From: Bacillota bacterium
GTDB lineage: Bacteria > Bacillota > Clostridia > Saccharofermentanales > UBA5734
Direction: 5' to 3'
DNA length: 57,365 nt
NCBI GenBank assembly: GCA_029548445.1
Contig: JAKPNJ010000156.1
Coordinates: 1-57,365 of the forward strand
Position numbers and translations under genes: made by a program. Below the pieces are notes generated by a model. The model did not search any database and was not told the origin of the DNA. It worked only from the letters and a program-made list of their open reading frames with translations. This document shows positions 3,374 through 57,365 of this stretch, in pieces. Positions within the stretch are counted from its first letter, which is position 1. Every line of letters begins with the position of its first letter.

Positions 3374-3586
3374 TTATACGAAAATGGCCTCGGCCAGGGA
3401 CTCGTCGATGCTGTACCGGGCATTCCGGATGCTCACGATATAATGGCCGGAGAGCTTGGAGAGGATCGTGATCTTCTCTCCCGGGTAGCAGCCGAGGGTA
3501 AACAGGAAGTCCCGCAGGTCCTCCTGGGCCGCATGGATCTGTTGGATCACGTAGGGGGTATTCAGCTTGCCCCTGGAAAGCGCCAT
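3374..3586 (-). CDS. feoA: FeoA-family ferrous iron transport protein A
   Basis: 70-aa SH3-like FeoA pattern (GCYPGEKITILSKLSGHYIVSIRNARYSIDESLAEAI) directly upstream of feoB. Confidence 0.85.
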   Translation of the reverse strand: MALSRGKLNTPYVIQQIHAAQEDLRDFLFTLGCYPGEKITILSKLSGHYIVSIRNARYSIDESLAEAIFV

Positions 3587-3631
3587 CCCGCGACCTGCCT
3601 TTCGAGTTGCCGGTGTCTAACAATCATATGG

Positions 3632-3660
3632 AATGTATCATGGGCCGCCCTGGGTGTCAA
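3632..3660 (-). promoter_or_regulatory. sigma-70-type promoter candidate for feoAB
   Basis: On the minus strand: TTGACA (3660-3655), a 17-nt spacer, then TACATT (3637-3632), about 45 nt upstream of the feoA ATG. It sits in the only AT-rich patch of this intergenic region. Confidence 0.45.
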
Positions 3661-3704
3661 GGCGCCGGATTGTGACCGGCATCACGGTCGGCAGGCCCGG
3701 AGGG

Positions 3705-4286
3705 TCAGACAGAAGGCGGATCTCCCCCGAACAGCAGCGACTCCAGCGGCTCCCGGGGACTCGGATGCTCCCGCTCCCGCAGGTCGGGCTCCAGCCGGGC
3801 CGGGTCGCCGTAGTAGCCTACCGCCACCGCGCACACGATGCTCATGTCCTCCGGAATGGCGAACGCCGCCCGGGCTTGGTCAACGCGGACGCCGCCCATG
3901 GCGTGGGTCACGAGCCCCCGGCGCTGGGCTTCCAGGGACAGGAAGCCCCAGGCGGTGCCGGTGTCGAAGAGATGCCAGCGGTTGGGCTTCCCGGTCTCTT
4001 CGAAGGCCTGGACGGCCAGGACCAGCAGCAGGACCGGCGCGTCCTTCGCCCAGGCCGGATTCCGCCCGGCCAGGACCCCGACCAGCTTCCGTCGGCTTTC
4101 CTCCGTCCGGGCCACGAGAAAGCGCCAGGGCTGTTCGTTCATGCAGGACGGTGCCTGGCGGGCCGCTTCCAGGAGGGCCAGCAGGTCCCCGTCCGAGACC
4201 GGCCGGTCGGGGTCGAAGGCCCGGGGCGACCAGCGGTCCCGAATTTCCGGCAGGATGTCGTGGCGGATTTCGCGCGGCTCGATCAT
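3705..4286 (-). CDS. nitroreductase-family oxidoreductase
   Basis: Contains RWSPRAFDPDRPVSDGDLLALLEAARQAPSCMNEQPWRF and later AMGG, typical of the NfnB/FMN-nitroreductase fold. Start chosen at MIEPREI (CAT 4284-4286). The upstream part of track ORF 3705..4370 is Gly/Arg-rich. Confidence 0.8.
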   Translation of the reverse strand: MIEPREIRHDILPEIRDRWSPRAFDPDRPVSDGDLLALLEAARQAPSCMNEQPWRFLVARTEESRRKLVGVLAGRNPAWAKDAPVLLLVLAVQAFEETGKPNRWHLFDTGTAWGFLSLEAQRRGLVTHAMGGVRVDQARAAFAIPEDMSIVCAVAVGYYGDPARLEPDLREREHPSPREPLESLLFGGDPPSV

Positions 4287-4403
4287 GGCGACCCTCCCGG
4301 ACGGCCCGGAGGGCGGGCTGCGGGGTGTGCCCGCCCTACCATGGCGACGTCCACCGCCATGGTACCACATCGATATGGAGGCGATTGGGACAGGAGGTCG
4401 GCG

Positions 4404-5504
4404 TCAGATCACTTCCCGGAAGTCCCTTCCCGGCAGTACCGGGAACGGAGCGTGGGGCTCCAGTTGGTACCAGACAGCCATGGAAGCGATGTCATCCTGG
4501 AGCGGCAGGAATCGTCCGGGCTGTCCGTGAATGCCGCTTCTCCATCCGAGGGCCTGGATCGTCGCCCGAAAATCCCGTTCGAATGGAACCGGGTCGGCCA
4601 CGTGCCACCGGTACATCCCGTGCCGCATATTGGCACCGGTGAAACCGTCCGGCGCAATGAACTGGTGATATCCCAGATAAGGGGCGCTGTAGGGGACATA
4701 CCCGTTCATCCGGTCGTTCAGAAAACTCCACGCCCCGCCGAAGTAATCCTCGGTCCCCGTTCCACAGTACGTCGGATGGTCCGTATCGCCATCAATGTAG
4801 TACTTGACCTCTCCCTCACCCCACCAGCCATTGTTGTTCTGGCCCCAGGCGAGATAGACGCCCGCGAATCGCCCCCTACCCCGGACCCCGTCCAACATGA
4901 CATATTCCGTCCGGAAGGGAACCGGGTTCTCCCGCCGCCACTGGGCATGGAACGAGAGACTCTCATCCGGCAAGTCTCCCAACAGGTAATCGATCTGGTA
5001 AAAGAAGCCGCTGATATCCTCGGGCCGCTGGTTCTCCACCGTGATCCGGGCGGATGTGCGGAAAGGCATGGGCCAGAAGGAGTTGAAGCCGCCGCTGGGA
5101 TTGACGTTGATCGGTGCGGACAATACATTGGCCCGGACTCCCCAGCCATTGCAGAAGAAGTCCCCGTACGGAACCTCCACGGAAGGCTCTGTCTCGCCGT
5201 CCCAGTACATCCGCAGGATGCAATCCCTGTATGCGCTGGTGGATGCGGTGGTCCAGATGTGGGTGATCAGCCCCGGACCCCGGATCTCTGCCAGGACGGC
5301 TGTTTCTCCCGCACGGATTGTGATGCAGGGCCGTACCTTCCAACCCGGCCCCAAGTCCCTGGCCGCTGAACCGCTGTCCGGAACCGCCAGGGCACCCTGG
5401 CCTTTCTCCCCGGCGGGATTCTCCGCGGAAATCGAACGGAAGGACGCGTTGGGGGCCATGTATATGGAGTCCAGGCTGTTTCCGAAGTGTCGAATGTCGT
5501 TCAT
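4404..5504 (-). CDS. DUF2961 / glycoside hydrolase family 172-like protein
   Basis: 366 aa with WGEGEVKYYIDGD and CGTGTEDYFGGAW motifs, which I recognise from DUF2961 (GH172) jelly-roll enzymes. No signal peptide. Confidence 0.75.
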   Translation of the reverse strand: MNDIRHFGNSLDSIYMAPNASFRSISAENPAGEKGQGALAVPDSGSAARDLGPGWKVRPCITIRAGETAVLAEIRGPGLITHIWTTASTSAYRDCILRMYWDGETEPSVEVPYGDFFCNGWGVRANVLSAPINVNPSGGFNSFWPMPFRTSARITVENQRPEDISGFFYQIDYLLGDLPDESLSFHAQWRRENPVPFRTEYVMLDGVRGRGRFAGVYLAWGQNNNGWWGEGEVKYYIDGDTDHPTYCGTGTEDYFGGAWSFLNDRMNGYVPYSAPYLGYHQFIAPDGFTGANMRHGMYRWHVADPVPFERDFRATIQALGWRSGIHGQPGRFLPLQDDIASMAVWYQLEPHAPFPVLPGRDFREVI

Positions 5505-5671
5505 GGTTCGTTCCTCCTGTTATCGGGTTCGGCACCGGCCAACTGACGACCGGGACAATGCCGACGGGTCCACTGTATCACGGCCATCCGTCGCCTGTTC
5601 ATGCGTTCTCGATCTTGTACGGGAATGTCCCATTGGACGCCGGAATCCTCCTGATGGCCGTTGAACCCCGG

Positions 5672-5680
5672 TGCTATACT
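5672..5680 (+). promoter_or_regulatory. extended -10 promoter element candidate (TGcTATACT)
   Basis: TG at 5672-5673 and TATACT at 5675-5680, about 75 nt upstream of ATG 5755. No good -35. Confidence 0.3.
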
Positions 5681-5754
5681 CGAGTCGAACACGCTGGATG
5701 CCCGTATGTAACGGGTCGTCCAGGGAAACAAAGGCCAAATCGGGAGGTGGATTC

Positions 5755-6609
5755 ATGAAGAGAAAGCTCGGTGTGTTGCTCATTCTGGCCGTCGCATTGC
5801 TTCTCATCGTTTCCTGCCGGCAGGGCACAAGCTGGTCCGATATGAAAATCGGACCGGGCGGGGCAGGAACCAAGACCATCCATTACAAATGGGAAAAGGA
5901 CAGTTTGGCGACCGCGGACGAACAGACGAAGGGAGACCTGTTGTCCAAATTCTTCCCCCAGGGCGAGCAGGCGGTCGCGGACTGGCTCCAGGACGAGGTA
6001 CCGGAAGGATTTGTCGTCGAGTACAATGGTGATTTGGCTGATTATCACGAGATCACGATCAGCTACTCGTTCACTGACATCGACGACTACAACGCCAAGA
6101 CCAAAATGATGATTCCCACCAATATCTGGGAGGATAACTTCCTGGAAGAAGCGACCCTGACCACCGAAGCGGTCTCCGGCGGGTACAACATGACCTTCAG
6201 GGAGTCCCTGGCCCTGCTGAAGTACAGCGGATACGGCTATTTCCTCTCCATGTACGAGGCGACTGACGTCTTTGACAAGACGCGGGATGGCTACGACGAC
6301 GGAACAGCCTATAATCCGGACAACCAGTTCGACTACATGACGGTCATCGTCACCGTCGGCGACGAGAGCCTGACCATCGAAGCCGGCAAGAACGTCAATA
6401 CGGGCGAATGGGACAGCGTCGATCCCAACGCGTTCATCGAGCTGACCGGGTTCGTTGCGGAAGCCGAAGCCACGCCGACCACGGCCGAGGCCACACCGAC
6501 CACTTCGACCAATCCGACGACTCCGGATGCCGGGATGGTTCCCGCGATCCTTGCGGCCGCCTTCGGGCTGTCGGCCCTGGTAATGGGCGTCAGGAGAAAG
6601 AAGGCCTGA
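5755..6609 (+). CDS. hypothetical surface protein with N-terminal lipobox and C-terminal TM anchor
   Basis: SD GGGAGGTGG lies before ATG 5755. MKRKLGVLLILAVALLLIVSC is a lipoprotein signal. The body is rich in D/Y/N/T. It carries an EATPTT(A/S) repeat and a C-terminal PDAGMVPAILAAAFGLSALVMGVRRKKA. GC is clearly lower than the flanks. Confidence 0.6.
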   Translation: MKRKLGVLLILAVALLLIVSCRQGTSWSDMKIGPGGAGTKTIHYKWEKDSLATADEQTKGDLLSKFFPQGEQAVADWLQDEVPEGFVVEYNGDLADYHEITISYSFTDIDDYNAKTKMMIPTNIWEDNFLEEATLTTEAVSGGYNMTFRESLALLKYSGYGYFLSMYEATDVFDKTRDGYDDGTAYNPDNQFDYMTVIVTVGDESLTIEAGKNVNTGEWDSVDPNAFIELTGFVAEAEATPTTAEATPTTSTNPTTPDAGMVPAILAAAFGLSALVMGVRRKKA

Positions 6610-6666
6610 CACAAGAAAATCCGTTCCGTCCGAAAAGGGACGGGATCGGGACAAGCGTGTGACGGA

Positions 6667-6699
6667 AACGGCGGGGAGTTCTCACCCCGCCGTTTTTAT
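6667..6699 (+). terminator. Rho-independent terminator
   Basis: AACGGCGGGG - agttctca - CCCCGCCGTT followed by TTTAT. It is preceded by a smaller hairpin, CCGTCC/GGACGG (about 6626-6643). Confidence 0.7.
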
Positions 6700-6716
6700 T
6701 CCGGAACGGAGGCTCC

Positions 6717-9362
6717 ATGGAGGGAGGAACCCGCGGCATGGAAGGATCTGTGGCCGGTCGGCCCTACGGGTCAGGTCGCTTCGGCCAATGGATCGAGGAC
6801 GGATTCGGGCTTCCGGCGTACCGGTACCGGGTCGATCCGGACGCGGCGGACCTGGAAGCCGGAACGTATTGCAGTCGGGTGCGGCGGCCCGGGGACCATG
6901 TCCACCAGGTGGGAAACGACCGGCTGGTCGCCGTCGTATCAACCTGCGGGTATGTCCGGGTCCGCCAGGACGAAGGGGGGCCGAAATTCCTGGACGACCA
7001 CGATCCGGAGACCGGACGGCCGGCGGGAGGGTTCGGCCGACTGTCCGGAGGCCCGCGTGTGCTCGCCACCGGCCCGGATCGGCAGGATCCTGCCATGGAG
7101 CGGGTCTTCGGGATGGGGTACTATCGGCGAACGGTGGAGGACGAATGCCACCGGGTCGACCAGGTGGTCTTCGCCCCCTTCGGGGACGATCCGCTGCTGA
7201 TCTCCCAGGTCACGATCCAAAACAAGGGGGTCGCCGACACCGCGGTTGCCTGGGAGGAAACCTGGGGCTGCCGCCTGGTTCCGCTGTCCTATCGGGCCCA
7301 TCTCATGGCCATGTACCAGGGGGACATGGGCCGGATCCCCGGGATCCGGCGCAGGATGTCCGCTGCCTATCGCATGGAGGATGTCCGGAGAGAGGCGTCG
7401 GGCCTGCTGGTCCGGCCGGTCCATGGCGGCCCGGATCCCGGCCTGGAGGACGAGTGGCGGCGGACCTACGCCCTCGCGTCCTCCCATCCGACCCTCTTCG
7501 GCGGCGAGCCGATCCAGGCGCCGCTTCCAACCTGTACTTTCGAGGACCCGTCGCCGCCGGCCGTTTTCCTCCTGTCGCTGGACGCCCCGGCCGAGGAGGC
7601 GGACCTCGACCCGTCGCAGGGCCGAATGCGCCTTGTCCGTCGATTCGGGCTCGCCGGCGGGGAAAGCCGGACGCTGTTCCTTGCCTACGGGTATCTTCCG
7701 GAGGGGTTCCGCCTGGAGGACCTCCTGACGCGGTACGGAACGAAATCCCTGCCGGGACTGCTCGAGCGAAGCTGCGGCCTCTGGCGGGGCGAGTCGTCCT
7801 GGCTGCAGGTACCTGACGCGCCCTGGATCGGCCGGGAGCTGAAGTGGAGCGGGTATTGCCTGCGGAGCGGCATGACCTTCGACACGTTTTTCGGGGAACA
7901 TGTCCTGTCCCAGGGCGGCGTTTACCAATATCTGGGCGGCATCCAGGGGGCCGTCCGGGACATGCTCCAGCACGCCTTGCCGTTCGTGTTGTCCGAGCCC
8001 CGGATCCTGCGGGAAGCCCTCCGGTATGCGATGAAGGAGATGCTTCCGGACGGCAGCCTGCCCTTCGCCATCACCGGCCACGGCGTCATCTGGCCCACGA
8101 CCCTCCGGAGCAGCGACCTGGGGCTTTGGCTGCTGTGGGCGGCCGCCGAGTATGTCCTGGTCACCCGGCACAGGGAGTTCCTGGATGAAAGGGTCGCTCC
8201 GTACCCAATGGACGGGATCGTCCGTGAGCCGGAAAGCGTGCGGTGCCTTCTCGAACGGTGCCGGCGGCATGTCCTGGAGGTGATCGGCACAGGCCCCCAT
8301 GGCCTCATGCGCATCACGGCCGGCGACTGGAACGACGGCATCATCTTGAACCATACGGCACCGGAAAAGAGGCCCGAGGCGGAGCGCCTGGGCGAGTCGG
8401 TCCTGAACGCCGCCATGGCATCGTATGTCCTGGACGCCTATACGGACCTGCTGGCCTTCGACGGCGACCCGGACGGGGCCGCCTCGGCAAGAGCCTGGGC
8501 CGCTGGCCAGCGCGACGCCGTTCGGGCCCAGTGGACCGGCCGCTGGTTCCGCCGGGCCTGGCTGGGGCCGGGGACGGGCTGGCTGGGGGAGGACGAATTG
8601 TGGCTGGAACCCCAGGGGTGGGCGATTCTCGGGGGATGCGCCCCGAAGCGGCAGGCGGCCGTTCTCCGGCGGCACATCAACCGTCTCCTTCGGCAGCCGT
8701 CGCCGATCGGGGCCATGATCCGGAACGCGGACGAGGGAGCGAGTCGGGAAGTCCCTTCCGGCGAATCGCTGGAAGGCGGCGTGTGGATGTCGGTCAACGG
8801 GGTCCTGTCCTGGGCGCTGACCCGGGTGGACGGCCTCATGGCCTGGGAGGAATGGGAGCGAAACCTCCTCTCCCGGCATGCGGAAGCCTATCCCGGAATA
8901 TGGTACGGCATCTGGAGCGGGCCCGACCACTATAACTCCGTCCGGTCGCCCAGGGCGGGCCTGGCCGCCAGCGACCGGGATCCGGAACGGGGGCACAACA
9001 GCACCGATTTCCCCGTCATGAACCTGCATGCCCATGCCTGGCCGATCTACGGGGCTTCGAAGATGCTGGGCCTCGCCTCCACGGCCGAGGGAATCCGGTT
9101 GGAGCCGGCGATCCCCCATGCGCGATATCGGTTCCACAGCACGCTGGTCGGGTTCCGGAAGGACGAGAAAGGCTATTCCGGCTGGTATGCGCCGCTGGCA
9201 AAGGGCTGCTGGACGATCCGGCTCCGGATGCCGAAGGAGGAGCGGAAGCGGTACGGAACCCTCCTGGTCAACGGATACCCGCAGCCCCTGTCCCCCGGAC
9301 GGGAGATCGTGATCCGGGGAACCGGCGGTCCCGGATCCCCGCTTCGCTGGAAGCTCCACTGA
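6717..9362 (+). CDS. GH94-like (cellobiose/chitobiose-phosphorylase superfamily) glycoside phosphorylase candidate
   Basis: 881 aa. The N-terminal pattern G.F...G..Y.Y ... HQVGNDRLVAVVSTCGY resembles phosphorylase N-termini. The central ITAGDWNDG motif is typical of the GH94/GH149/GH161 (alpha/alpha)6 catalytic domain. No signal peptide. Alternative start at ATG 6738. Confidence 0.6.
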   Translation: MEGGTRGMEGSVAGRPYGSGRFGQWIEDGFGLPAYRYRVDPDAADLEAGTYCSRVRRPGDHVHQVGNDRLVAVVSTCGYVRVRQDEGGPKFLDDHDPETGRPAGGFGRLSGGPRVLATGPDRQDPAMERVFGMGYYRRTVEDECHRVDQVVFAPFGDDPLLISQVTIQNKGVADTAVAWEETWGCRLVPLSYRAHLMAMYQGDMGRIPGIRRRMSAAYRMEDVRREASGLLVRPVHGGPDPGLEDEWRRTYALASSHPTLFGGEPIQAPLPTCTFEDPSPPAVFLLSLDAPAEEADLDPSQGRMRLVRRFGLAGGESRTLFLAYGYLPEGFRLEDLLTRYGTKSLPGLLERSCGLWRGESSWLQVPDAPWIGRELKWSGYCLRSGMTFDTFFGEHVLSQGGVYQYLGGIQGAVRDMLQHALPFVLSEPRILREALRYAMKEMLPDGSLPFAITGHGVIWPTTLRSSDLGLWLLWAAAEYVLVTRHREFLDERVAPYPMDGIVREPESVRCLLERCRRHVLEVIGTGPHGLMRITAGDWNDGIILNHTAPEKRPEAERLGESVLNAAMASYVLDAYTDLLAFDGDPDGAASARAWAAGQRDAVRAQWTGRWFRRAWLGPGTGWLGEDELWLEPQGWAILGGCAPKRQAAVLRRHINRLLRQPSPIGAMIRNADEGASREVPSGESLEGGVWMSVNGVLSWALTRVDGLMAWEEWERNLLSRHAEAYPGIWYGIWSGPDHYNSVRSPRAGLAASDRDPERGHNSTDFPVMNLHAHAWPIYGASKMLGLASTAEGIRLEPAIPHARYRFHSTLVGFRKDEKGYSGWYAPLAKGCWTIRLRMPKEERKRYGTLLVNGYPQPLSPGREIVIRGTGGPGSPLRWKLH

Positions 9363-48092: not shown

Positions 48093-48363
48093 GCATGAAC
48101 AAGCATTTGACCCGGTATTTTCACGCGAAACCCCTGTTTTTTCGGCCAGGACCGGCGTATACTTCTATCAGAACCCAAAGCGATAAGGGCAAACCCGTCG
48201 AAAGGCGGGGGCGCAAAGCTACAGGGCCTTCCGGCGAAAGCCGATGGCAGCCAGTTGCCGAATCTTGTGTTCTTCTTGTTTAAGGAGGGAGAGGGACATT
48301 CGGATCGCTTCAGGGCGACACGCTCGAACGGCCTGTGGGCCGTACAGGAAAAGAGGTGCGCTG

Positions 48364-49470
48364 ATGAAGAAGTGGAAACTGAAATGGATTGCTCTCCTGC
48401 TGGCCACCCTGGCGATGCCCCTGTTCTCCATCGCAGGATGCGCCCTGAATCCCTGGTTCGAGGATCCGGAGCTCCAGGCGCCGGTTCTGGCCAGGACCAT
48501 CCGGATCGTCACGATCGACATCAATCCCAGCATCGTCCTGACGGTGGACGAGGAAACTCGGACCGTCCTGGAGGCCGAGGCCGTCAATCCGGAAGGCCAG
48601 GCCCTCCTGGATGAAGTCCCGGTGGAAGGCCAGCCCGTGGAGGACGCCGTGGGCGACCTGGTGGACGAAGCCGTCGACCAGGGCTACATCGATCCCGAGG
48701 ACGCCGGGGATGCCGTGGCCATCGGGGTGTCCGATCCGATGACCGAAGAGGAGCCACCTGCGGAAGAGCCCCCTGCGGAGGAGCCCCCTGCGGAGGAGCC
48801 GCCTGCGGAAGAGCCCCCTGCCGAGGAGCCGCCTGCGGAAGACCCCCCGGCGGATGAGACCGGCGACGACCTGGCCGACGACCTGGGCGATGCCGCCGAG
48901 GAGGCCCTGGAAGAGGCCGGTGCCGATCCCGACGTGGAGGTGTGCGTCTCGGAAATCGCCCATGAGCGCATCGCAGCCGCCCGGGAACTGGGGATCTCCC
49001 CCGGCAGGCTGCTGCTGATCGACCGCCTGGCCGGGCTGTCCGACATGACCCGCGAAGAGGCCCTCGCCCTCTACAAGGAGGCCAAGGTCCGGGTGATCAT
49101 GAAGGAAACCAACCGCCTGCGCAAGGAAGCTAAGGTCGGCCAGGGCGACGATGGCGAAGAGCCTGGGGAGGAGCCGGAGGAAGAACCCGGCGACGAACCG
49201 GAGGAAGAGCCGGAAGAGGACCCGGACGTCGAGGAACCGGGGGAGGAGCCTGGCGACGAGCCCGAGGAGGGCGATGAGGCCGAGGGCGACGAAACCGAGG
49301 AAGGCGACGAATCCGACGAAGGCGACATGGACGTGACCGAAGAGGACGAGGGGTTTGTCAGCCTGGAGGCGGCCGAGGAACTGCACGGAAAGACCGTCGG
49401 CCAGGCCCGCTCCCAGGCGGCCCGGGCCGCCGCAGCCGCGCGCAAGGCCCTGAAGCAGAAGAACCGCTGA
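48364..49470 (+). CDS. hyper-acidic repeat lipoprotein
   Basis: About 368 aa. MKKWKLKWIALLLATLAMPLFSIAGC lipobox. The segment IVTIDINPSIVLTVDEETRTVLEAEAVNPEG is reminiscent of the extracytoplasmic segment of RsgI-type anti-sigma factors. It also has (EEPPA)x7, a long E/D/P/G tract and a basic C-terminal tail. Confidence 0.65.
   Translation: MKKWKLKWIALLLATLAMPLFSIAGCALNPWFEDPELQAPVLARTIRIVTIDINPSIVLTVDEETRTVLEAEAVNPEGQALLDEVPVEGQPVEDAVGDLVDEAVDQGYIDPEDAGDAVAIGVSDPMTEEEPPAEEPPAEEPPAEEPPAEEPPAEEPPAEDPPADETGDDLADDLGDAAEEALEEAGADPDVEVCVSEIAHERIAAARELGISPGRLLLIDRLAGLSDMTREEALALYKEAKVRVIMKETNRLRKEAKVGQGDDGEEPGEEPEEEPGDEPEEEPEEDPDVEEPGEEPGDEPEEGDEAEGDETEEGDESDEGDMDVTEEDEGFVSLEAAEELHGKTVGQARSQAARAAAAARKALKQKNR
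48748..48852 (+). repeat. 15-bp in-frame tandem repeat x7 encoding EEPPA
   Basis: GAG GAG CCA CCT GCG and six variants, ending with GAA GAC CCC CCG GCG. Confidence 0.9.
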
Positions 49471-49647: not shown

Positions 49648-51048
49648 TCAAGGGTCCATGCCGTCCAGGATGACCTGGCGGATGGAATCCAGGGTCATGG
49701 CCCCGATCTCGACCATGCGGCAGTTGTAGTCGATGGCCCTGGCGTCGGGCGGGTAGCCCAGTAGGGACTCGAACAGCGCGATGAAGTCCCGGCGGGTGGC
49801 TTCGGGATCGAATCCGGGGATGCGATGGGCTTCGATCCAGGCCCGGTGCTCCCGGACCAGGATGTCCAGGGCGGTGGCCGGATCCCGGGACCAGTAGGGG
49901 TTGGCCAGCCACTGGCGGATGCAAACCTCCTCCGGGATGACGTAAAAGACCCGCTCGTAGGACTCGACGATCAGGGCCCGCCGCTCGGCCTCCGATAACA
50001 CCGCCTTCGGCATGCCGTCCAGGATGGCCTGGCGGATGGAATCCAGGGTCATGGCCCCGATCTCGACCATGCGGCAGTTGTAGTCGACGGCCCTGGCGTC
50101 GGGCGGGTAGCCCAGGAGGGACTCGAACAACGCGATGAAGTCCCGGCGGGTAGCCTCGGGATCGAATCCGGGGATGCGATGGGCCTCGATCCAGGCCCGG
50201 TGCTCCCGGACCAGGATGTCCAGGGCGGTGGCGGGATCCCGGGACCAGTAGGGGTTTTCCAGCCACTGGCGGATGCAGGTTTCCTCCGGGATGACGTAAA
50301 AGACCCGCTCGTAGGACTCGATAATCAGGGCCCTGCGCTCGACCTCGGACAGGGGTATCGGCGTGGGGGTGGCCGGCGTGGGGGTCGTCGGAGTGGGGAT
50401 GGCCTGGACGGGCGGGACCGACGGGACGGGGCCGATGCGGAACTGGAAGGTGGCGCCCCAGCCCGTCTCATGACCCGTGGAGCGGTCGATGGCGTTCACG
50501 TTGAAGTTGTACAGGCCATCCGCCAGGGTGCCGCCATACCGCCAGCGGGTCTCGGAAATCCATCCGCTGTCCACCGGCGTCGGGCAATCGTAGAGCGAGA
50601 CCCGGTACTCGACCCGCCCGCCGGTCGGCGCCAGAAAGACAGTCCAGGCCAGGGTCGGGACGGTACCGGAGGGGAAGACGGACTGGTTCGCCGGTTCCAG
50701 GGGCAGGGAGTGGGTGGCGGATGGATCGGGCTGGGGCGCCGATGTCGGCTGGGGCGCCGATGTGGGTTGGGAACCGGACGGCGGGGGAACAGGCGGCGCC
50801 TGTGTCGGGGATGGGGCCGATCCGCCGGTGTCCACTGTCGCCGGGGTCGGGATCAACAGGCTGTCCTGGGGCTGTTCGGGATCGAACCAGGCTCCGTCGC
50901 CCTCTCCGGAGCTCTCTCCGGAGAAATGGACGACACCCCCGTTCCAGTCGATGAGATCGGCCCCGACGGCCAGCCGCAGCAGGATCGCCACCGCGGCGGC
51001 CAGGGCCAGTGTGACAAGGATCCGGTTTCGCAGGCCAGGGTGTTTCAT
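49648..51048 (-). CDS. secreted protein with Pro/Ser/Thr linkers, an Ig-like domain and a duplicated C-terminal domain of about 115 aa
   Basis: 466 aa. N-terminal signal/anchor RNRILVTLALAAAVAILLRLAV. SD GGAGGCCTCCCC upstream. The two C-terminal domain copies differ at only 6 residues. Confidence 0.7.
   Translation of the reverse strand: MKHPGLRNRILVTLALAAAVAILLRLAVGADLIDWNGGVVHFSGESSGEGDGAWFDPEQPQDSLLIPTPATVDTGGSAPSPTQAPPVPPPSGSQPTSAPQPTSAPQPDPSATHSLPLEPANQSVFPSGTVPTLAWTVFLAPTGGRVEYRVSLYDCPTPVDSGWISETRWRYGGTLADGLYNFNVNAIDRSTGHETGWGATFQFRIGPVPSVPPVQAIPTPTTPTPATPTPIPLSEVERRALIIESYERVFYVIPEETCIRQWLENPYWSRDPATALDILVREHRAWIEAHRIPGFDPEATRRDFIALFESLLGYPPDARAVDYNCRMVEIGAMTLDSIRQAILDGMPKAVLSEAERRALIVESYERVFYVIPEEVCIRQWLANPYWSRDPATALDILVREHRAWIEAHRIPGFDPEATRRDFIALFESLLGYPPDARAIDYNCRMVEIGAMTLDSIRQVILDGMDP
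49651..50352 (-). repeat. 354-bp in-frame tandem duplication inside the CDS
   Basis: CATGCCGTCCAGGATG... recurs at 49657 and 50011 (period 354). By manual alignment there are about 20 mismatches over about 340 nt. Confidence 0.9.
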
Positions 51049-51867: not shown

Positions 51868-51948
51868 GATGGTTCCTCCTTTCGTGGGCCGGACCCCTCG
51901 TCCGACCCTGCCCTCAGGGTATCCGGCGGACCACGGCCCGGTTCATTT

Positions 51949-51966
51949 TTCCGGAATCTTTCGGAA
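51949..51966 (+). promoter_or_regulatory. two TTCCGGAA-type octamers one helical turn apart (operator candidate)
   Basis: TTCCGGAA (perfect palindrome, 51949-51956) and TTTCGGAA (51959-51966), immediately upstream of an extended -10-like TGcTATCAT (51972-51980). Confidence 0.35.
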
Positions 51967-51978
51967 CAGAATGCTATC

Positions 51979-53412
51979 ATGAGGACGATACGGGACACGG
52001 AAAGGGTGGTGGCGGGCATGCCGGGACGACTGGTGCCGCAGCATCTGTACGAGGAAGACATCCCCTGCTGGCAGCTCGTTGTCCAGGGGCCGGACGGACC
52101 GGAGGTGTTCGGTCGGGACAGCGAGTGGGTCCTGGACGGCGGCCGCTTCGGATGCATCCGTCCCTATGCCGTGGTCCAGTCAGCGGAGGGCGCATCGCCG
52201 AAGACCGTCTGGAGCCAGCCGGTCTGGTGCGAGGGACCGAAACGGCATGCACCCGGGTCGAAAGGCGACGGCGAGTTCGTGGCAGGATCCATCTTTATCC
52301 CGTACCTGCGGGATGCCGACGGCCGGATCGCGGTCGGCTTCATGCGGCAGTTTCGCCCCCTGGTAGATCCTGATAAAGATCCGGACGCCGTGACGTATGC
52401 CGACATCGTGCCGGGACGGGAACGGGGCAGCTGGATGCTCCAGTTCCCGAGGGGGTTCGGCCAGTTGACGGCCCTGCCGGAGTCGATGGGGGAAGGAGAC
52501 GCCCTGCGGCCCCAGATGGAGGCCATGACAAACGAATATAAGCACATATTCAGAGTTCAGGAACCCCTCGGTCGAATCAATGCCAACTCCGCCCTGTTCA
52601 TCGGGTTCATCCAGGTGATCGCGGTCAAGGTGGCCCCGGAGATCTTCAGCGAGACGTTTGCCGGATGGGGATGGCGGCCGCCGGCCGAGGACCCTGGCCA
52701 GCTGATCCGGGCCGAGCGCGGCTTCGTCTACCTCGACGAGGTCCAGGAGGTTTTGCGAGGCGAGGGGGTGCTGTGCGGGCTGACCCTGGCTGCGCTGTCG
52801 CTGCTGGGGTTTCATGTAGCCCGGCAGCGCTCCGGCCACCCGGCACGGCCGGAGGCGCCGGGCGTGGCCGGTCCGGAGGTTCCGGATTCGGACCCGACTC
52901 CCTTTCCGACTCTCCTGGCCCGGCTCATGCGGATGAACGGGCTGGATGCTCGCTCCCTGGCCAGGGCGCTCTGGTACGATTCCTGCCGGTCGGGAGCCCT
53001 CCGGAACGATCCGGCCGCCCGGTGCCGCCAGTACCTCCTGCAGCACTTCGAGGAAACGGCCGACGCCAACCGGAACGATCCGGCCCACGCCGCCCGCCGG
53101 ATCCAGGGACTGGCCGACCGCCTGTTCGGCTACATGATGGAACAGGAACCCTATTTCGATCCGAACCGGGAGGAACGCATCGAATCCATGGCTCGCAGCG
53201 TCGACAACTGGCTTAAGGGAAGGAACGCACCCAAGGGCGAATCCCTGCGGTTCCTGGCCCGGGTGCTCTGCGGACTCGACGATCCTTTCCCGATCGAACA
53301 GGCGTTGAATCGATCCATCGGCCCCGGGAAGGAAAAAAAGCGGAAACGCAGCGTCCCGCGGCAGGCGTCCGGTACCATGGAACCATCCGAACCGGAGGAG
53401 GGCCGCCCATGA
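51979..53412 (+). CDS. degenerate Nudix-fold domain fused to a C-terminal HTH (XRE-like) region
   Basis: About 477 aa. GSIFIPYLRDADGRIAVGFMRQFRP...GSWMLQFPRGFG aligns with the Nudix protein encoded next, but the Nudix box is replaced (EAMTNEYKH instead of RRELAEETG). The C-terminal LLARLMRMNGLDARSLARAL looks like an XRE-type HTH. Alternative start at ATG 52018 (after AAAGGGTGGTGG) if TATCAT is a real -10. Confidence 0.55.
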   Translation: MRTIRDTERVVAGMPGRLVPQHLYEEDIPCWQLVVQGPDGPEVFGRDSEWVLDGGRFGCIRPYAVVQSAEGASPKTVWSQPVWCEGPKRHAPGSKGDGEFVAGSIFIPYLRDADGRIAVGFMRQFRPLVDPDKDPDAVTYADIVPGRERGSWMLQFPRGFGQLTALPESMGEGDALRPQMEAMTNEYKHIFRVQEPLGRINANSALFIGFIQVIAVKVAPEIFSETFAGWGWRPPAEDPGQLIRAERGFVYLDEVQEVLRGEGVLCGLTLAALSLLGFHVARQRSGHPARPEAPGVAGPEVPDSDPTPFPTLLARLMRMNGLDARSLARALWYDSCRSGALRNDPAARCRQYLLQHFEETADANRNDPAHAARRIQGLADRLFGYMMEQEPYFDPNREERIESMARSVDNWLKGRNAPKGESLRFLARVLCGLDDPFPIEQALNRSIGPGKEKKRKRSVPRQASGTMEPSEPEEGRP

Positions 53413-54128
53413 AAGACCGATACAGGGAATGGATCGCAAAAAAACCAGGCTGGTTCCGGAATCCGGATGGACCGGTGGGGATCCATATCGCGACGGATCC
53501 CGACGAGATCGCGACGATCCGGGAAGAGATGCGGCGGCGCCTGGCGAGCCGGGGTATTTCGGCCCGCCGGGCGGACGCCTGGACCCGGATCGGCATCGTG
53601 TACGAGGATCCGTACCTCTGCCTCGTCCGGGACGCAGTCCGGTTCGAGCCAGGCCACGTGCCGGGCACCTACATCCGGCAGATGCCGACCGGAGACGGAC
53701 CCGGCGGCGTGGTGGTCCTGCCCCTCGTCGGGGACGACATCCTGCTGGTCCGGATCTTCCGCCACGCCCTGCGGGATTTCTCTCTCGAGTTTCCGCGCGG
53801 GTTCTGCGAGCGCCCGCCCCGGGGGATGGATCCGGATGCGGCCATCGAGTGGAACGCCCGGCGGGAACTTGCAGAGGAAACAGGCGCCGAGGCCGAGACC
53901 ATCGAACACCTGGGGACCTGCCATACGGATACGTCCTTCAGCGGCTCCGGCGTCGCGTTCTGCGCCGCCCGCATCCTGTCCTTTGGAGAGCCCCAGGTCT
54001 CCGAGGGGATCGACCAGGTCGTCCGGATCTCCCGTCCGGAGATGGAGCGACGAATCGCCGAAAACGGCATTGTGGACGGGCTGACCCTGATGGCCTATGC
54101 CAAGGCGAAAAGCCGGGGCATCCTGTAA
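53409..54128 (+). CDS. Nudix hydrolase (ADP-ribose pyrophosphatase-like)
   Basis: 239 aa. Intact Nudix box GFCERPPRGMDPDAAIEWNARRELAEETG. ATGA overlap with the upstream gene (53409-53412). Confidence 0.85.
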   Translation: MKDRYREWIAKKPGWFRNPDGPVGIHIATDPDEIATIREEMRRRLASRGISARRADAWTRIGIVYEDPYLCLVRDAVRFEPGHVPGTYIRQMPTGDGPGGVVVLPLVGDDILLVRIFRHALRDFSLEFPRGFCERPPRGMDPDAAIEWNARRELAEETGAEAETIEHLGTCHTDTSFSGSGVAFCAARILSFGEPQVSEGIDQVVRISRPEMERRIAENGIVDGLTLMAYAKAKSRGIL

Positions 54129-54141
54129 TGGAGATAAACGC

Positions 54142-55899
54142 ATGACAACGGACGACCTCGTGAGGGAAGCCGCCCCGGATCCGGCCGGACAGTGGGCCCT
54201 GCTTCGGGACGTGCTGGACGGGATCCTGCCGGCCGACGGGAGCCGGATCCTCCTGTCCCAGGTGGGCATCCACCTTGGGAAAAGGGGCTTCGTCCTGGCG
54301 GCAACCGGGCATGCAAAGCTGAAAGACGCCCTGGTGGAAGTGACCGACCTGTGTGAACTGATCCCGGACCCGGCCATTCCGGCCCGGATCGCGGTGCGGC
54401 GAAGGTCTGCCATCGCGTCGCCTGTTGCGTTGTCCGATGCATCATCCGTCGCATCGCCCGTCCCGGCGCCTCCCGCATCCGCAGCACCAAAGGCGCAACT
54501 GGATCCGGATCCCGAACTGGGAAGGTTCGCCTTTATCCCACCCTCCTCGGTGGAACATCCAGGCATTTTCGAGTGGATGGACCGAATGTATTCGCCCAAA
54601 GACCGGATTCCCGAACTTGCGGACCAGCGGCTGATGCAGGTCTACCTGGCGGAATCCTGGCGGAAGGCCGTGCGATCGGGCGCAGTCTTCGCTTCGCCGG
54701 ACTGCGTCGCCTTCGACACGGGACTCGTCGCCACAAGCGGAGAGCCGATCCTGGCTGTTTTCGAGCCTAACCGGATCCCCGACCGACAGCCCTGGATCCT
54801 CCACAAAATCCTGACACCAAGCCGATTCGAAAGGACCTACGGGATTGATCCGCACTTCGTACCCGCTGCGGGCGATGAAACGGCCCGTAAACTCCTTGCT
54901 TCGATCCAGGGCGCCGCGAATCCTGCCCAGGAACCGAGGCCCCTCCTGCCCGAACGGTTCGAGCACTTCGCCGTCCACCCGAATTTCTTCGGGTGCATGG
55001 CCCGCCTGGAATCCCAGGCCCTGCCCGAGTCCTGGACCTTTCCGGAAGGTGCAGGCGGACCGCGCAGTATACTCAGGAATTTCCTGATCTATACCTACCA
55101 GAGGCTCCGGTATGAGGGGAAGATCGTAATATCGGAGAATCGGGACCTGGCTGTCTTCCACACGGGTCTCGCCGGAAGACGGCTCATGCGGCCTATCTAT
55201 GCCTGCTATGAACCGAACCCGGACCGGTCCCCGGACGCGCCGCCATGGCGACTGACGGATTTTATCGAGGAAGGAACGGGTCCCATGGGCCGCCGCATCG
55301 CAACCGAACTGCCCGAAAAGCCCCGGAGGGCCGCCTATTTCCAGTCCGCCGAGGAGTTGGTCCTTCTTCTCCCCCCGGAACGGGACCCGGATATCACCAT
55401 TCGGTATGAGCACATCGTCGGGGAGCGCCTCGACCGGCTCCCGGCAGCATACCTGCAGGAGCGGCTGCATACCCGTCCCGACCTCCTGGCGATGATCGCC
55501 GAGAACCGAAACCGGAGCGAGGACGAGAGAAACCGGATTTACCTGTCCATCGGGAACACTGTATTTGACGACATGAACCTGGCCCTGAAGATCACAGAGG
55601 ACCTGGACAAGGCCGTGAGTCGGGCGCTCCGAAACTTGCGGTGGAATTTCCGTACGGCGGTGCCGTTCTACTACCCAACCCAGGCACGCATGAATTTTCT
55701 CCTGCCCCTGGCCCTGGTCGATGTCCAGACGCCGGATCTTGCCTTGGTCGTCGAGATGACCGCCAGCGGCAACCTGCTGGCCCCCACCGTCTTTACCATG
55801 GAAATGGCGTATACGTGTGCCCGGCTGGTCAATCGGCCGGAAAGCGACTGGCTCCGACCGGAGAAGAAGCCAATCAGCGGGGAGGGCGCAGTCTCTTGA
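54142..55899 (+). CDS. OST-HTH/LOTUS-like N-terminal domain + duplicated DUF3825-like modules
   Basis: About 585 aa. SD GGAG 8 nt before ATG 54142. The N-terminus (LLSQVGIHLGKRGFVLAATGHAKLKDALVEVTD) resembles OST-HTH. Two related modules are present (VAFDTGLVATSGEPILAVFEPNRIPDRQPW and AVFHTGLAGRRLMRPIYACYEPNPDRSPDAPPW), and the second is followed by a DUF3825-like tail. Family names are from memory. Confidence 0.55.
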   Translation: MTTDDLVREAAPDPAGQWALLRDVLDGILPADGSRILLSQVGIHLGKRGFVLAATGHAKLKDALVEVTDLCELIPDPAIPARIAVRRRSAIASPVALSDASSVASPVPAPPASAAPKAQLDPDPELGRFAFIPPSSVEHPGIFEWMDRMYSPKDRIPELADQRLMQVYLAESWRKAVRSGAVFASPDCVAFDTGLVATSGEPILAVFEPNRIPDRQPWILHKILTPSRFERTYGIDPHFVPAAGDETARKLLASIQGAANPAQEPRPLLPERFEHFAVHPNFFGCMARLESQALPESWTFPEGAGGPRSILRNFLIYTYQRLRYEGKIVISENRDLAVFHTGLAGRRLMRPIYACYEPNPDRSPDAPPWRLTDFIEEGTGPMGRRIATELPEKPRRAAYFQSAEELVLLLPPERDPDITIRYEHIVGERLDRLPAAYLQERLHTRPDLLAMIAENRNRSEDERNRIYLSIGNTVFDDMNLALKITEDLDKAVSRALRNLRWNFRTAVPFYYPTQARMNFLLPLALVDVQTPDLALVVEMTASGNLLAPTVFTMEMAYTCARLVNRPESDWLRPEKKPISGEGAVS

Positions 55900-57365
55900 A
55901 ACCGGACATTCGGCGGCAGGTCGCGATTGGCGTCGTCGGCACCCTGGTGTCCCTTCTGGCAGGTGGACTCTTCCTGGCGTTTTTCCTCGAGAGCCTGACA
56001 CCCTGGATCACGATGCCGACCCTGGCTCTCCTGGTGGGGGCGGTCTTCGGCTTCCTGTTTTTCATTTTCGGCGGATGGAGCGGCTTCCGGTCCGGTGCGG
56101 GGATCGGCGCCGGATTCGTGGCCGCACTATCGGTTTTCCAAATCGCGATGCGGGATCTGCCCTCCGCCTGGCTGGGCGTCCTGTTCGTTACGGGAGCTGT
56201 CCTGGTCTTCGGCCTGCCCCTGGTGCGCGAGTACCGGCGGGACCGACGGGGCCGTGATCGGCAGGGCCGGGGCCGGCGACAGGCAGGCGAGTCGGCCGGT
56301 CGGCCAGCCGGGTGGCTCGGGGGCCGCGAGCGGCGGCAGGCGGAGAAGGAAGCGAAAGAGGAGGAAGCAGCACGCCTCCTCCAGGCCCAGGTCGACGAAT
56401 GGAAGGCGGCCATCGGGTTCGGGGAGCGGTCCCTCCTGCTCATGGCGCCCACGGGCGGCTTCTACCAGCTGGTTCGGGCTGCCGACGGGCTGCGGTTCAT
56501 CCGGGTCGGCGGCGAACTGGCCGGCCTCGATCCGGACCGATTCCTGCCCATGGTCCCGCCGGACGCGCCGGATGCACAGGGCACACAGGACGCACCGGAC
56601 GCGCCGGACGCGAAGCAGGACTTCCGGATCCCCTACGCCGACCTGGACCGGATCCTGGTCCGGCATGGCCCGGTCCGGAACCAGGTCCACGACAACAGCG
56701 GCCACGTGACATTCAGGACAGGCTCGAAGACCCGGCGATTCCTGCTCCTGGACACGATCTCCCCGAGAGCGGCCGAGGGATTCTTCGCGCGGCTCCCGCT
56801 GGAAATCCGAACCCGCCGGCAGGACGCGGCCGCATCGGAGCCGGAGCTGCGTCGGACGGAGGCGGACGACCCCCGGCTCCTGCCCAGGCTGAAGGCCGCG
56901 GTCCTGGCCATGACCCTGGCCGCCATCCTGGCCGCCGCCCTGTTCGTCTTCCTGCCGCTTTTCGACCTGCGGGATCCCCAGCCGGCCTATCGCGTGCTCT
57001 CGGCTCTCTGCATTCTGCTCCCCCTGGCGTCCCTGGGCCTTTACATCCGGTACGACGGGCGGATCGTCCTGGGGGACCGGGACGACCGGGACGGAACCCG
57101 GGACGCGACATTCATGGCCCGGCAGGTCGGCATCCAGCTTCCCTTCCTCCTGCCTGGCCTGGCCCTGGGATTCCGGACGCTCCGGGATTTCACCCTCCTC
57201 GACTGGCTGCCCCTGCTGGCCTGGAGCGCGGCCCTGCTGGCCATTCTCCTGGCCCTGGTCCTGGCCTGGACGACGGAATACCGGCGCCACTGGAGCGTCC
57301 TGGTCCTCTTCCTGTTCGTCGCCCTGTTTTTCGTCCCATCGGCCCTGGTCCAGGTCAATTGCCTG
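55896..57365 (+). CDS. polytopic membrane protein with a central soluble domain (3' end outside window). Not in the supplied ORF track.
   Basis: Frame 3 is open for 490 codons from TTG 55896 to the window end. TTG overlaps the upstream TGA (TTGA), and GGGGAGGG lies 8 nt upstream. Translation: LKPDIRRQVAIGVVGTLVSLLAGGLFLAFFL... (about 4 TM helices), an Arg-rich/coiled linker, a soluble part (GGFYQLVRAADGLRFIRVGG...HVTFRTGSKTRRFLLLD), then further TM helices. Confidence 0.6.
   Translation, partial: MKPDIRRQVAIGVVGTLVSLLAGGLFLAFFLESLTPWITMPTLALLVGAVFGFLFFIFGGWSGFRSGAGIGAGFVAALSVFQIAMRDLPSAWLGVLFVTGAVLVFGLPLVREYRRDRRGRDRQGRGRRQAGESAGRPAGWLGGRERRQAEKEAKEEEAARLLQAQVDEWKAAIGFGERSLLLMAPTGGFYQLVRAADGLRFIRVGGELAGLDPDRFLPMVPPDAPDAQGTQDAPDAPDAKQDFRIPYADLDRILVRHGPVRNQVHDNSGHVTFRTGSKTRRFLLLDTISPRAAEGFFARLPLEIRTRRQDAAASEPELRRTEADDPRLLPRLKAAVLAMTLAAILAAALFVFLPLFDLRDPQPAYRVLSALCILLPLASLGLYIRYDGRIVLGDRDDRDGTRDATFMARQVGIQLPFLLPGLALGFRTLRDFTLLDWLPLLAWSAALLAILLALVLAWTTEYRRHWSVLVLFLFVALFFVPSALVQVNCL

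Follow-up and report, generated by a model that had tools for sequence, protein, structure and literature searches.

Introduction

In the regulator NrtR, binding of ADP-ribose to a Nudix-like domain lifts repression (PMC2330246), and for one-component repressors that join a Nudix or WYL domain to a helix-turn-helix (HTH), a role in controlling conflict operons related to ADP-ribose has been predicted (PMC9503650, section 3.8). Here, we analyze an operon of four genes, g1 to g4, at the end of a 57,365-nucleotide stretch of DNA from an uncultured Bacillota bacterium (contig JAKPNJ010000156.1; the whole stretch is referred to as the window). The operon encodes, in this order, a Nudix-fold protein with a ruined catalytic box, a Nudix hydrolase, a DUF3825 protein, and a membrane protein. 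We tentatively interpret the locus as a Nudix-sensor regulator operon with novel cargo, i.e., a lineage-specific operon under an NrtR-like Nudix-sensor/HTH regulator, g1, with g2 removing the ligand, and we hold this interpretation with somewhat less than even confidence.

Like NrtR (PMC2330246, PMC6800001), g1 appears to combine an N-terminal degenerate Nudix effector domain, resembling that of ADP-ribose pyrophosphatases (ADPRases), with a C-terminal putative DNA-binding region, and likely controls its own operon. Unlike in NrtR, the C-terminal region is larger, all-helical, and XRE-like at best, rather than a winged helix; the two proteins share no detectable sequence similarity, and the operon contains neither NAD-metabolism genes nor an NrtR box. 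In view of the missing winged helix and the lack of an NAD regulon or NrtR box, membership of g1 in the NrtR family was rejected. With the ARG-centred, predicted anti-ADP-ribosylation conflict systems (PMC9503650), the operon would share a Nudix-sensor/HTH regulator heading rapidly evolving, variable genes. Unlike those systems, it contains no ADP-ribosylglycohydrolase, rhodanese- or calcineurin-type phosphatase, chaperone, or restriction-endonuclease module, as judged by Pfam searches with g1 to g4, and cargo composed of DUF3825 and a membrane protein is not described in section 3.8 of that work.

A preliminary description of this DNA had proposed that a catalytically dead Nudix protein carrying an HTH leads a candidate new system. 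For the first part of this proposal, a dead Nudix domain with an HTH as an ADP-ribose-sensing regulator, published precedent exists in NrtR (PMC2330246) and in the Nudix- or WYL-HTH regulators of predicted conflict systems (PMC9503650). If the regulatory interpretation is correct, dead-Nudix sensing of the NrtR kind would be seen to operate with another type of DNA-binding scaffold and outside the control of NAD metabolism, and DUF3825 would be tied to nucleotide or ADP-ribose signalling.

A degenerate Nudix protein and an intact Nudix hydrolase lead the operon

The first gene of the operon, g1 (51979-53412, + strand), encodes a protein of 477 aa that has no matches of its own in Pfam, NCBIfam, PADLOC, or PDB sequences; Pfam searches with the whole protein (E≤1) and with each half (E≤10) returned no family, and plasmid and phage records searched with tblastn contained no match to it. 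When 1.84 billion representative proteins were searched exhaustively with phmmer, only four distant relatives were recovered, P0003 to P0006 (E values of 1.5e-9 to 2.4e-5), which cover g1 residues 29-304. All four match the Pfam NUDIX family, three above the gathering score and P0003 slightly below it, and the catalytic box is intact in P0004 to P0006 (REUxEExG) and nearly intact in P0003 (REFSEEMQ). Alignment of g1 with the intact-box relatives and with g2 places its box at G159-N185 (52453..52533, + strand), where RPQMEAMTN replaces REUxEExGU; in the segment RPQMEAMT, only one of the three catalytic glutamates remains, and the glycine is lost as well. An AlphaFold2 (AF2) model built from a shallow alignment has an overall predicted local distance difference test (pLDDT) score of 46, with core residues 101-285 being better. 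Searched against PDB with Foldseek, the model retrieved only Nudix or ADP-ribose pyrophosphatase structures at a target-normalised TM-score (template modelling score) of ~0.5, with RenU, a putative ADP-ribose pyrophosphatase (1viu), NUDT5, and the GDP-mannose hydrolase YffH at the top. Collectively, these results make it a well-supported prediction that g1 has a Nudix fold of the ADP-ribose pyrophosphatase type with a ruined catalytic box, and that it is presumably inactive.

The C-terminal ~170 residues of g1 are all-helical in the AF2 model and are common only to P0003 (30% identity), the conservation including a WLxGxxxPxxxSLxxLA segment. Within this region, residues 405-431 (SVDNWLKGRNAPKGESLRFLARVL; 53191..53271, + strand) form an XRE-type HTH-like segment. 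In hhalign comparisons with 434 Cro, 434 cI, P22 C2, and SinR, the segment aligns with XRE helices 3-5 at a nonsignificant level (E=0.038, probability 1.3%). P0003 has an HTH_3 match at the equivalent place that falls below the cutoff (E=0.018), phrog_23106 matches g1 residues 399-424 (E=0.0099), and a profile of the g1 C-terminus retrieved nothing relevant from PDB. These matches point weakly to an XRE-type HTH at the C-terminus of g1. Thus, of the dead Nudix-HTH protein envisaged in the preliminary description, the dead Nudix part stood, through both the fold and the RPQMEAMT box, and the HTH part came through only as a faint signal (E=0.018 in P0003; hhalign probability of 1.3%). The full g1 architecture (Nudix plus XRE-like) was otherwise found in P0003 alone.

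The loci of the g1 relatives differ in content. In two assemblies (L007 and L008; Logan SRR31798034 and SRR31798026), P0003 is followed by genes for a Patatin phospholipase (3e-22) and a Dynamin-family GTPase (1.6e-7), and is preceded by a divergent gene for an AAA_22/NACHT-like protein with TPR (STAND-like NTPase) of >893 aa. The region upstream of P0003 contains a TTGACG box enclosed by the two arms, GGAACCTGAGGA...TCCTCAGGTTCC, of a perfect 12-bp inverted repeat. P0004 (249 aa) and P0006 (440 aa) flank a gene for an Inositol_P-family phosphatase in a tightly packed arrangement (L009 and L011; Logan SRR22387924, an archaeal-looking contig), and this trio sits among translation-factor and ribosomal-protein (housekeeping) genes.

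The second gene, g2 (53409-54128, + strand, 239 aa), overlaps g1 by ATGA and matches Pfam NUDIX (3.4e-7; 30.8 bits against a gathering cutoff of 21.1), which places it within the family. Its catalytic helix, R152-G159 (RELAEETG; 53862-53885, + strand), has an intact REx2EE motif, and RELAEETGA matches the REUxEExGU helix, in line with the earlier designation of g2 as a canonical Nudix hydrolase; catalytic competence is predicted on this basis. The nearest PDB sequences are NudF (5c7q, 1e-9), Ndx2 (2yvm), and ADP-ribose pyrophosphatases (range of 1e-9 to 3e-5). Both in its nearest sequences and in the retained REx2EE helix, g2 thus resembles the NudF/NudE/NUDT5 group of ADP-ribose and NDP-sugar pyrophosphatases, to which g1 is alike by fold. 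It departs from this group in scoring far below the cutoff of the NCBIfam NudE equivalog (34.2 bits against 169), and therefore lying outside that family, in carrying an N-terminal extension of ~60 aa, and in the atypical first half of the box (Gx5E), with a loop insertion of 4-5 residues and an alanine at the position of the first box glutamate.

A proline downstream of the Nudix box, a mark of classical ADP-ribose pyrophosphatases, is missing in both g1 and g2, so that ADP-ribose as the ligand is a guess.

Four coupled genes and a candidate regulatory switch

The third gene, g3 (54142-55899, + strand, 585 aa), follows g2 after a 13-nt gap, and the fourth, g4 (55896-57365, + strand, at least 490 aa), starts at a TTG within a TTGA overlap with g3 and runs to the window end. 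The G+C content at third codon positions (GC3) is 0.75 in g3 and 0.80-0.85 in g1, g2, and g4, against ~0.48 at second positions (GC2) in the four genes, which amounts to strong coding periodicity. GGAGG-like ribosome-binding sites lie 7-10 nt 5′ of the starts of g2, g3, and g4, and no sigma-70-like promoter was found within the four-gene cluster. The composition of the operon is not unusual, G+C being ~65% across the whole window. The arrangement given in the preliminary description, four same-strand genes coupled through an ATGA overlap, a 13-nt gap, and a TTGA overlap, was verified in full together with the coding periodicity, and g1 to g4 are almost certainly co-transcribed.

Two Logan assemblies contain the genes in identical order, and the g1 product that they encode shares 99% identity with the one in the window. 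A further metagenome contig, L137, is 99% identical across the end of g3 and the entire g4. Beyond g4, this contig has an MFS transporter gene (Pfam MFS_1, 4.9e-13), separated from g4 by ~190 nt in which a TATAAT box occurs. The operon therefore consists of exactly four genes; on the upstream side, it is bounded by a gene that encodes a secreted protein and is transcribed divergently. Positions 1-167 of L137 are unrelated to the window and encode a membrane-protein-like fragment (KdpA-like by eye), which meets g3 at a common LLPLAL stretch; this junction is probably an assembly chimera.

Upstream of g1, 13-30 nt before its start codon, lies an imperfect palindrome, TTCCGGAATCTTTCGGAA (51949..51966, no strand assigned), which occurs once in the window against a chance expectation of 0.13 at ≤2 mismatches and plausibly serves as a putative g1 operator. 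A riboswitch upstream of g1 was also considered and rejected, an Rfam search of that region being empty.

In the interpretation that we prefer, g1 would be a one-component transcription factor whose dead ADPRase-type Nudix domain senses a nucleoside diphosphate-linked (NDP-X) ligand, the leading guess being ADP-ribose or a relative. Through its helical, XRE-like C-terminus, g1 would attach to DNA, probably at TTCCGGAATCTTTCGGAA, and repress the operon until the NDP-X ligand appears and releases repression. The translationally coupled g2 would then hydrolyse the same ligand class and reset the switch, with g3 and g4 being the regulated cargo, or output. We favor such NrtR-like logic because a dead ADPRase-like Nudix domain, a putative DNA-binding tail, and the first position in the operon come together in g1. 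Also counted in its favor is that P0003 heads a gene string of its own (Patatin and Dynamin-family genes) and has a gene for a STAND-like NTPase as its neighbour. What we infer is that g1 binds DNA and regulates its own operon, which ligand it senses, and that the Nudix pair is functionally linked with g3 and g4.

Several points weigh against this interpretation. The g1 model is of low confidence (pLDDT 46), the candidate HTH is statistically weak, and an NrtR-type winged-helix domain was not detected in g1 by Pfam. The putative operator TTCCGGAATCTTTCGGAA is one short motif without comparative support, the ADPRase proline is absent from g1 and g2, leaving ADP-ribose as a guessed ligand, and no recurrence backs a functional link of g1 and g2 with g3 and g4.

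A DUF3825 protein and a membrane protein as putative cargo

The DUF3825 domain of the g3 protein (residues 289-570; 55006..55851, + strand) is complete and carries a helical insertion; it matches Pfam PF12873 over profile positions 1-238 at 7.1e-63 (212.8 bits against a cutoff of 27), well within the family, and phrog_11623 at 1.7e-25. In a 60-sequence alignment, the invariant residues of the family are all present in g3: E296, W298, G342, L343, P508, P522, A556, Y557, R561, and W570. An extra N-terminal half of the domain precedes it at residues 160-229 (54619..54828, + strand; Pfam DUF3825, 3.3e-9, profile positions 19-90), and in phmmer searches this segment matches the N-half of many DUF3825 homologues. 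The duplicated DUF3825 modules announced in the preliminary description are therefore one complete copy and a second that is a partial N-half only. The 60-sequence profile matched no solved structure in PDB, and no mention of DUF3825 or PF12873 was found in the literature searched.

To sample loci with DUF3825 genes, we scanned for the EMAYxNARL motif in the form of a degenerate DNA pattern, which biases the sample toward members with that motif. In GTDB representative genomes, the pattern gave at least 120 loci, with a DUF3825 homologue in 112 among the matches listed; in IMG/VR viral contigs, it gave 69 loci, 66 of them with a homologue. The resulting 178 listed loci, ~1.5 Mb of scanned DNA together, are the basis for the comparisons below. 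DUF3825 was found on 8 plasmid and 4 phage records, 66 viral contigs, and at least 112 genome loci, and the proteins sampled among the listed matches are mostly of 250-320 aa, encoded by short stand-alone genes. Like these stand-alone proteins (PF12873/phrog_11623), g3 has a complete, high-scoring domain with all family-invariant residues. Unlike them (~250-320 aa), it has 585 aa, with a unique N-terminal domain, the partial extra N-half, and the helical insertion.

The N-terminal domain of g3 (residues 1-95; 54142..54426, + strand), which is followed by an Ala/Pro-rich linker, has no family match. An RNA-binding OST-HTH domain had been proposed for this part of the protein, and it was not detected: residues 1-103 have no Pfam match to OST-HTH even at E≤10, the N-terminus has no match among PDB sequences at E≤10, and the first ~100 residues have no homologue across the listed DUF3825 loci. 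The idea of an RNA-sensing module, which had been built on OST-HTH, thereby lost its support. A single-sequence AF2 model of g3 (pLDDT 33) was unusable.

Closest to g3 among the listed matches is a protein of Kribbibacterium absianum (L121, NZ_JASJEX010000002.1; 33% identity), which has the same arrangement of a partial N-half and DUF3825. In that locus (3414-8000), the DUF3825 gene comes directly after genes for a vWA protein (8.9e-8), a PP2C_2 phosphatase (2.8e-26), and a Ser/Thr kinase (1.9e-8) with a hydrophobic C-terminal tail, a set that we take to be a TerY-P-like triad tied to stress and conflict systems.

The fourth protein, g4, has a full length of ~569 aa, of which the window holds 490 aa. 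Recovery of the rest of the gene, suggested in the preliminary description, succeeded with L137 (365-2110; complete, 99% identical), which supplied the missing last 79 aa, a C-terminal soluble domain. In a hydropathy scan, g4 has four transmembrane helices within residues 13-110, an Arg-rich soluble stretch of ~215 residues (111-327), and 4-5 further transmembrane helices within 328-485, bearing out the soluble domain between two transmembrane bundles described previously; the predicted protein has 8-9 transmembrane helices in total, a domain on the cytoplasmic side, and a small domain at the C-terminus. Searches of Pfam, PADLOC, and PHROG with g4 gave no family above threshold, the 79-aa tail has only weak matches to DUF7489, DUF3592, and TOBE_2, and full-length g4 has no relatives in tblastn searches of plasmid and phage records. 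Within the soluble domain, a 9/18-nt tandem repeat detected with Tandem Repeats Finder (TRF) (56557..56612, + strand) encodes DAPDAQGTQDAPDAPDA. This repeat (DAPDA) is 36 nt longer in L137 (~1062-1110) and is therefore strain-variable; we read it as a length-variable linker because of this expansion in the strain variant.

The combination of these genes appears to be confined to one lineage. No relatives of g1, g2, or g4 were found by phmmer (E≤1e-3) in the 112 genomic and 66 viral loci listed, and neither a Nudix hidden Markov model (HMM) nor a relaxed box pattern found a Nudix gene near DUF3825 there. Word-indexed searches with g1, g3, and a DUF3825 alignment of nine sequences retrieved nothing beyond the near-identical self cluster, apparently because the filter was swamped, and single-protein scans with g3 gave nothing in genome or viral contigs and one strain variant in metagenome contigs. 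The quartet is thus seen only in variants ~99% identical to the window. Recurrence in unrelated genomes had been set beforehand as the test of the proposal, and with the quartet found in no other organism, the candidate new system is a one-off rather than a demonstrated system. Its composition is indeed undescribed, as had been suspected: no PADLOC model matches it, and DUF3825 is not mentioned in the literature searched. Being a singleton, confined to a single uncultured lineage, it does not amount to evidence for a widespread new system.

This pattern gives some weight to a fortuitous composite, in which g1 and g2 would be a small pair with a housekeeping or regulatory role in nucleotide-metabolite handling, and g3 and g4 a domesticated mobile-element cargo and an unrelated membrane protein, co-transcribed with the pair and serving separate pathways. 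The association of DUF3825 with Nudix genes in a chromosomal operon, as for g3, occurs in 0 of the 178 other listed loci, and among the listed matches a membrane protein lies directly 3′ of DUF3825 in 3 of 47 cases, none of them g4-related. The archaeal g1 relatives P0004 and P0006, flanking an inositol-phosphatase-like gene among housekeeping genes, fit the same picture, as does the GC3 of g3, somewhat below that of the other three genes. Against such a composite stand the tight packing of the genes, with a 13-nt gap between g2 and g3 that holds its own ribosome-binding site and the TTGA overlap of g3 and g4, the lack of an internal promoter-like site, and a gene order kept in three independent metagenome assemblies, although these represent ~99% identical strains. 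We regard the composite as possible but doubtful.

Alternative roles for the Nudix pair

ADPRase-type Nudix enzymes are obligate dimers, and g1 might be a pseudo-enzyme partner that tunes or localises g2 in a heterodimer, rather than a transcription factor. The two proteins are alignable over the whole Nudix domain and have a common ADPRase-like core, including an EFPRGF motif, their ATGA overlap favors equimolar co-translation, and the HTH evidence for g1 is weak. Such a partnership does not account for the ~170 extra helical residues at the C-terminus of g1, which are conserved in P0003 at 30% identity, and P0003 itself has no adjacent second Nudix gene. We therefore consider a heterodimer unlikely.

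The preliminary description had also raised anti-phage logic. In a system for phage defence or abortive infection, the Nudix component would sense a nucleotide arising from infection, for instance ADP-ribose generated through NAD+ cleavage or ADP-ribosylation, and DUF3825 and the membrane protein would execute the response. The wide distribution of DUF3825 on mobile elements speaks for this idea. On plasmids, some DUF3825 genes lie next to Abi, insertion sequence (IS), integrase, restriction-modification, or type I-E CRISPR genes; one DUF3825 gene lies at a prophage end right after the lysin gene, and another in a phage region alongside exonuclease and anti-repressor genes. Candidate defence models (WYL, pAgo/SIR2, or PDC) are matched by a minority of the neighbours, a count made without a control, which lessens its value as support. 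The vWA-PP2C-kinase triad upstream of the DUF3825 gene in L121 and the STAND, patatin, and dynamin genes beside P0003 point in the same direction, and Nudix-HTH regulators are predicted in conflict systems (PMC9503650). The evidence from the locus itself runs the other way: none of the four proteins (0/4) matches a PADLOC model, the four-gene set shows no recurrence, neither g3 nor g4 yielded a recognisable toxic or effector domain, and the visible flanks are not a defence island. A placement of the operon in a defence or mobile island, which the preliminary description had wished to see checked, is not borne out, the genes seen in the flanks being secreted-protein, RsgI-like, and MFS genes instead. 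An anti-phage role is, in our estimation, improbable.

We give similarly little credence to a variant in which the operon would act in conflict or stress and be triggered by an ADP-ribose-like nucleotide, with g1 and P0003 forming a rare family of Nudix-XRE sensor-regulators that switch on effector cargo. The cargo would then be DUF3825 and the membrane protein here, and the patatin and dynamin-like GTPase at the P0003 locus. If this variant were true, it would provide the first way into the function of DUF3825, which is widespread among phages, plasmids, and integrative elements yet wholly uncharacterised. The locus is of value mainly as a lead toward DUF3825 function.

Two further candidates were dismissed: a conserved housekeeping operon, ruled out by the absence of relatives, and a known defence system, ruled out by the lack of a PADLOC match (no family in PADLOC-DB 2.0 at E≤1 for any of g1 to g4).

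Neighbourhoods of DUF3825 and of the operon

Beyond the plasmid and prophage settings, the immediate neighbours of DUF3825 in the listed genome loci include small HTH_16 genes (16/150) and Sigma70_r4 genes (9/150). In 16 listed loci, the small HTH_16 gene precedes DUF3825, usually with a Sigma70_r4 gene nearby; a cluster of 16 neighbours situated just upstream of DUF3825 corresponds to them, and in L041, L067, and L130 the upstream gene overlaps DUF3825 by 18-21 nt. The pairing of HTH_16 and Sigma70_r4 genes is presumably typical of the regulatory modules of Tn916-like conjugative elements. The Enterobacter roggenkampii plasmid pK666_3k (L006; 3103 bp, ColE1-type) carries a DUF3825 gene, its other annotated genes being only those for Rop, an HTH-domain protein, and a short replication initiation protein. 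In a Sphingomonadales metagenome-assembled genome (L110, 2567-3781, - strand), a DUF3825 protein has a weak N-terminal match to the cold-shock domain (Pfam CSD, 0.0027, below the cutoff; GSIKFYN by eye), which hints at a link between DUF3825 and nucleic acids.

Around the operon itself, genes for secreted proteins and an RsgI-like anti-sigma factor lie upstream and the MFS transporter gene downstream. The RsgI-like gene (48364-49470; Pfam RsgI_M, 2.7e-22) is directly preceded by a c-di-GMP-I-GGC riboswitch (48179-48263, + strand; Rfam RF03167, 69.7 bits, E=1.8e-14), and its product carries long acidic tandem repeats of PPAEE and EEPGE. Between this gene and the operon, the - strand gene 49648-51048 encodes a secreted protein with no Pfam match and contains a 354-nt tandem duplication (49657-50346; 1.9 copies, 94% identical), which corresponds to two modules of ~118 aa in the product.

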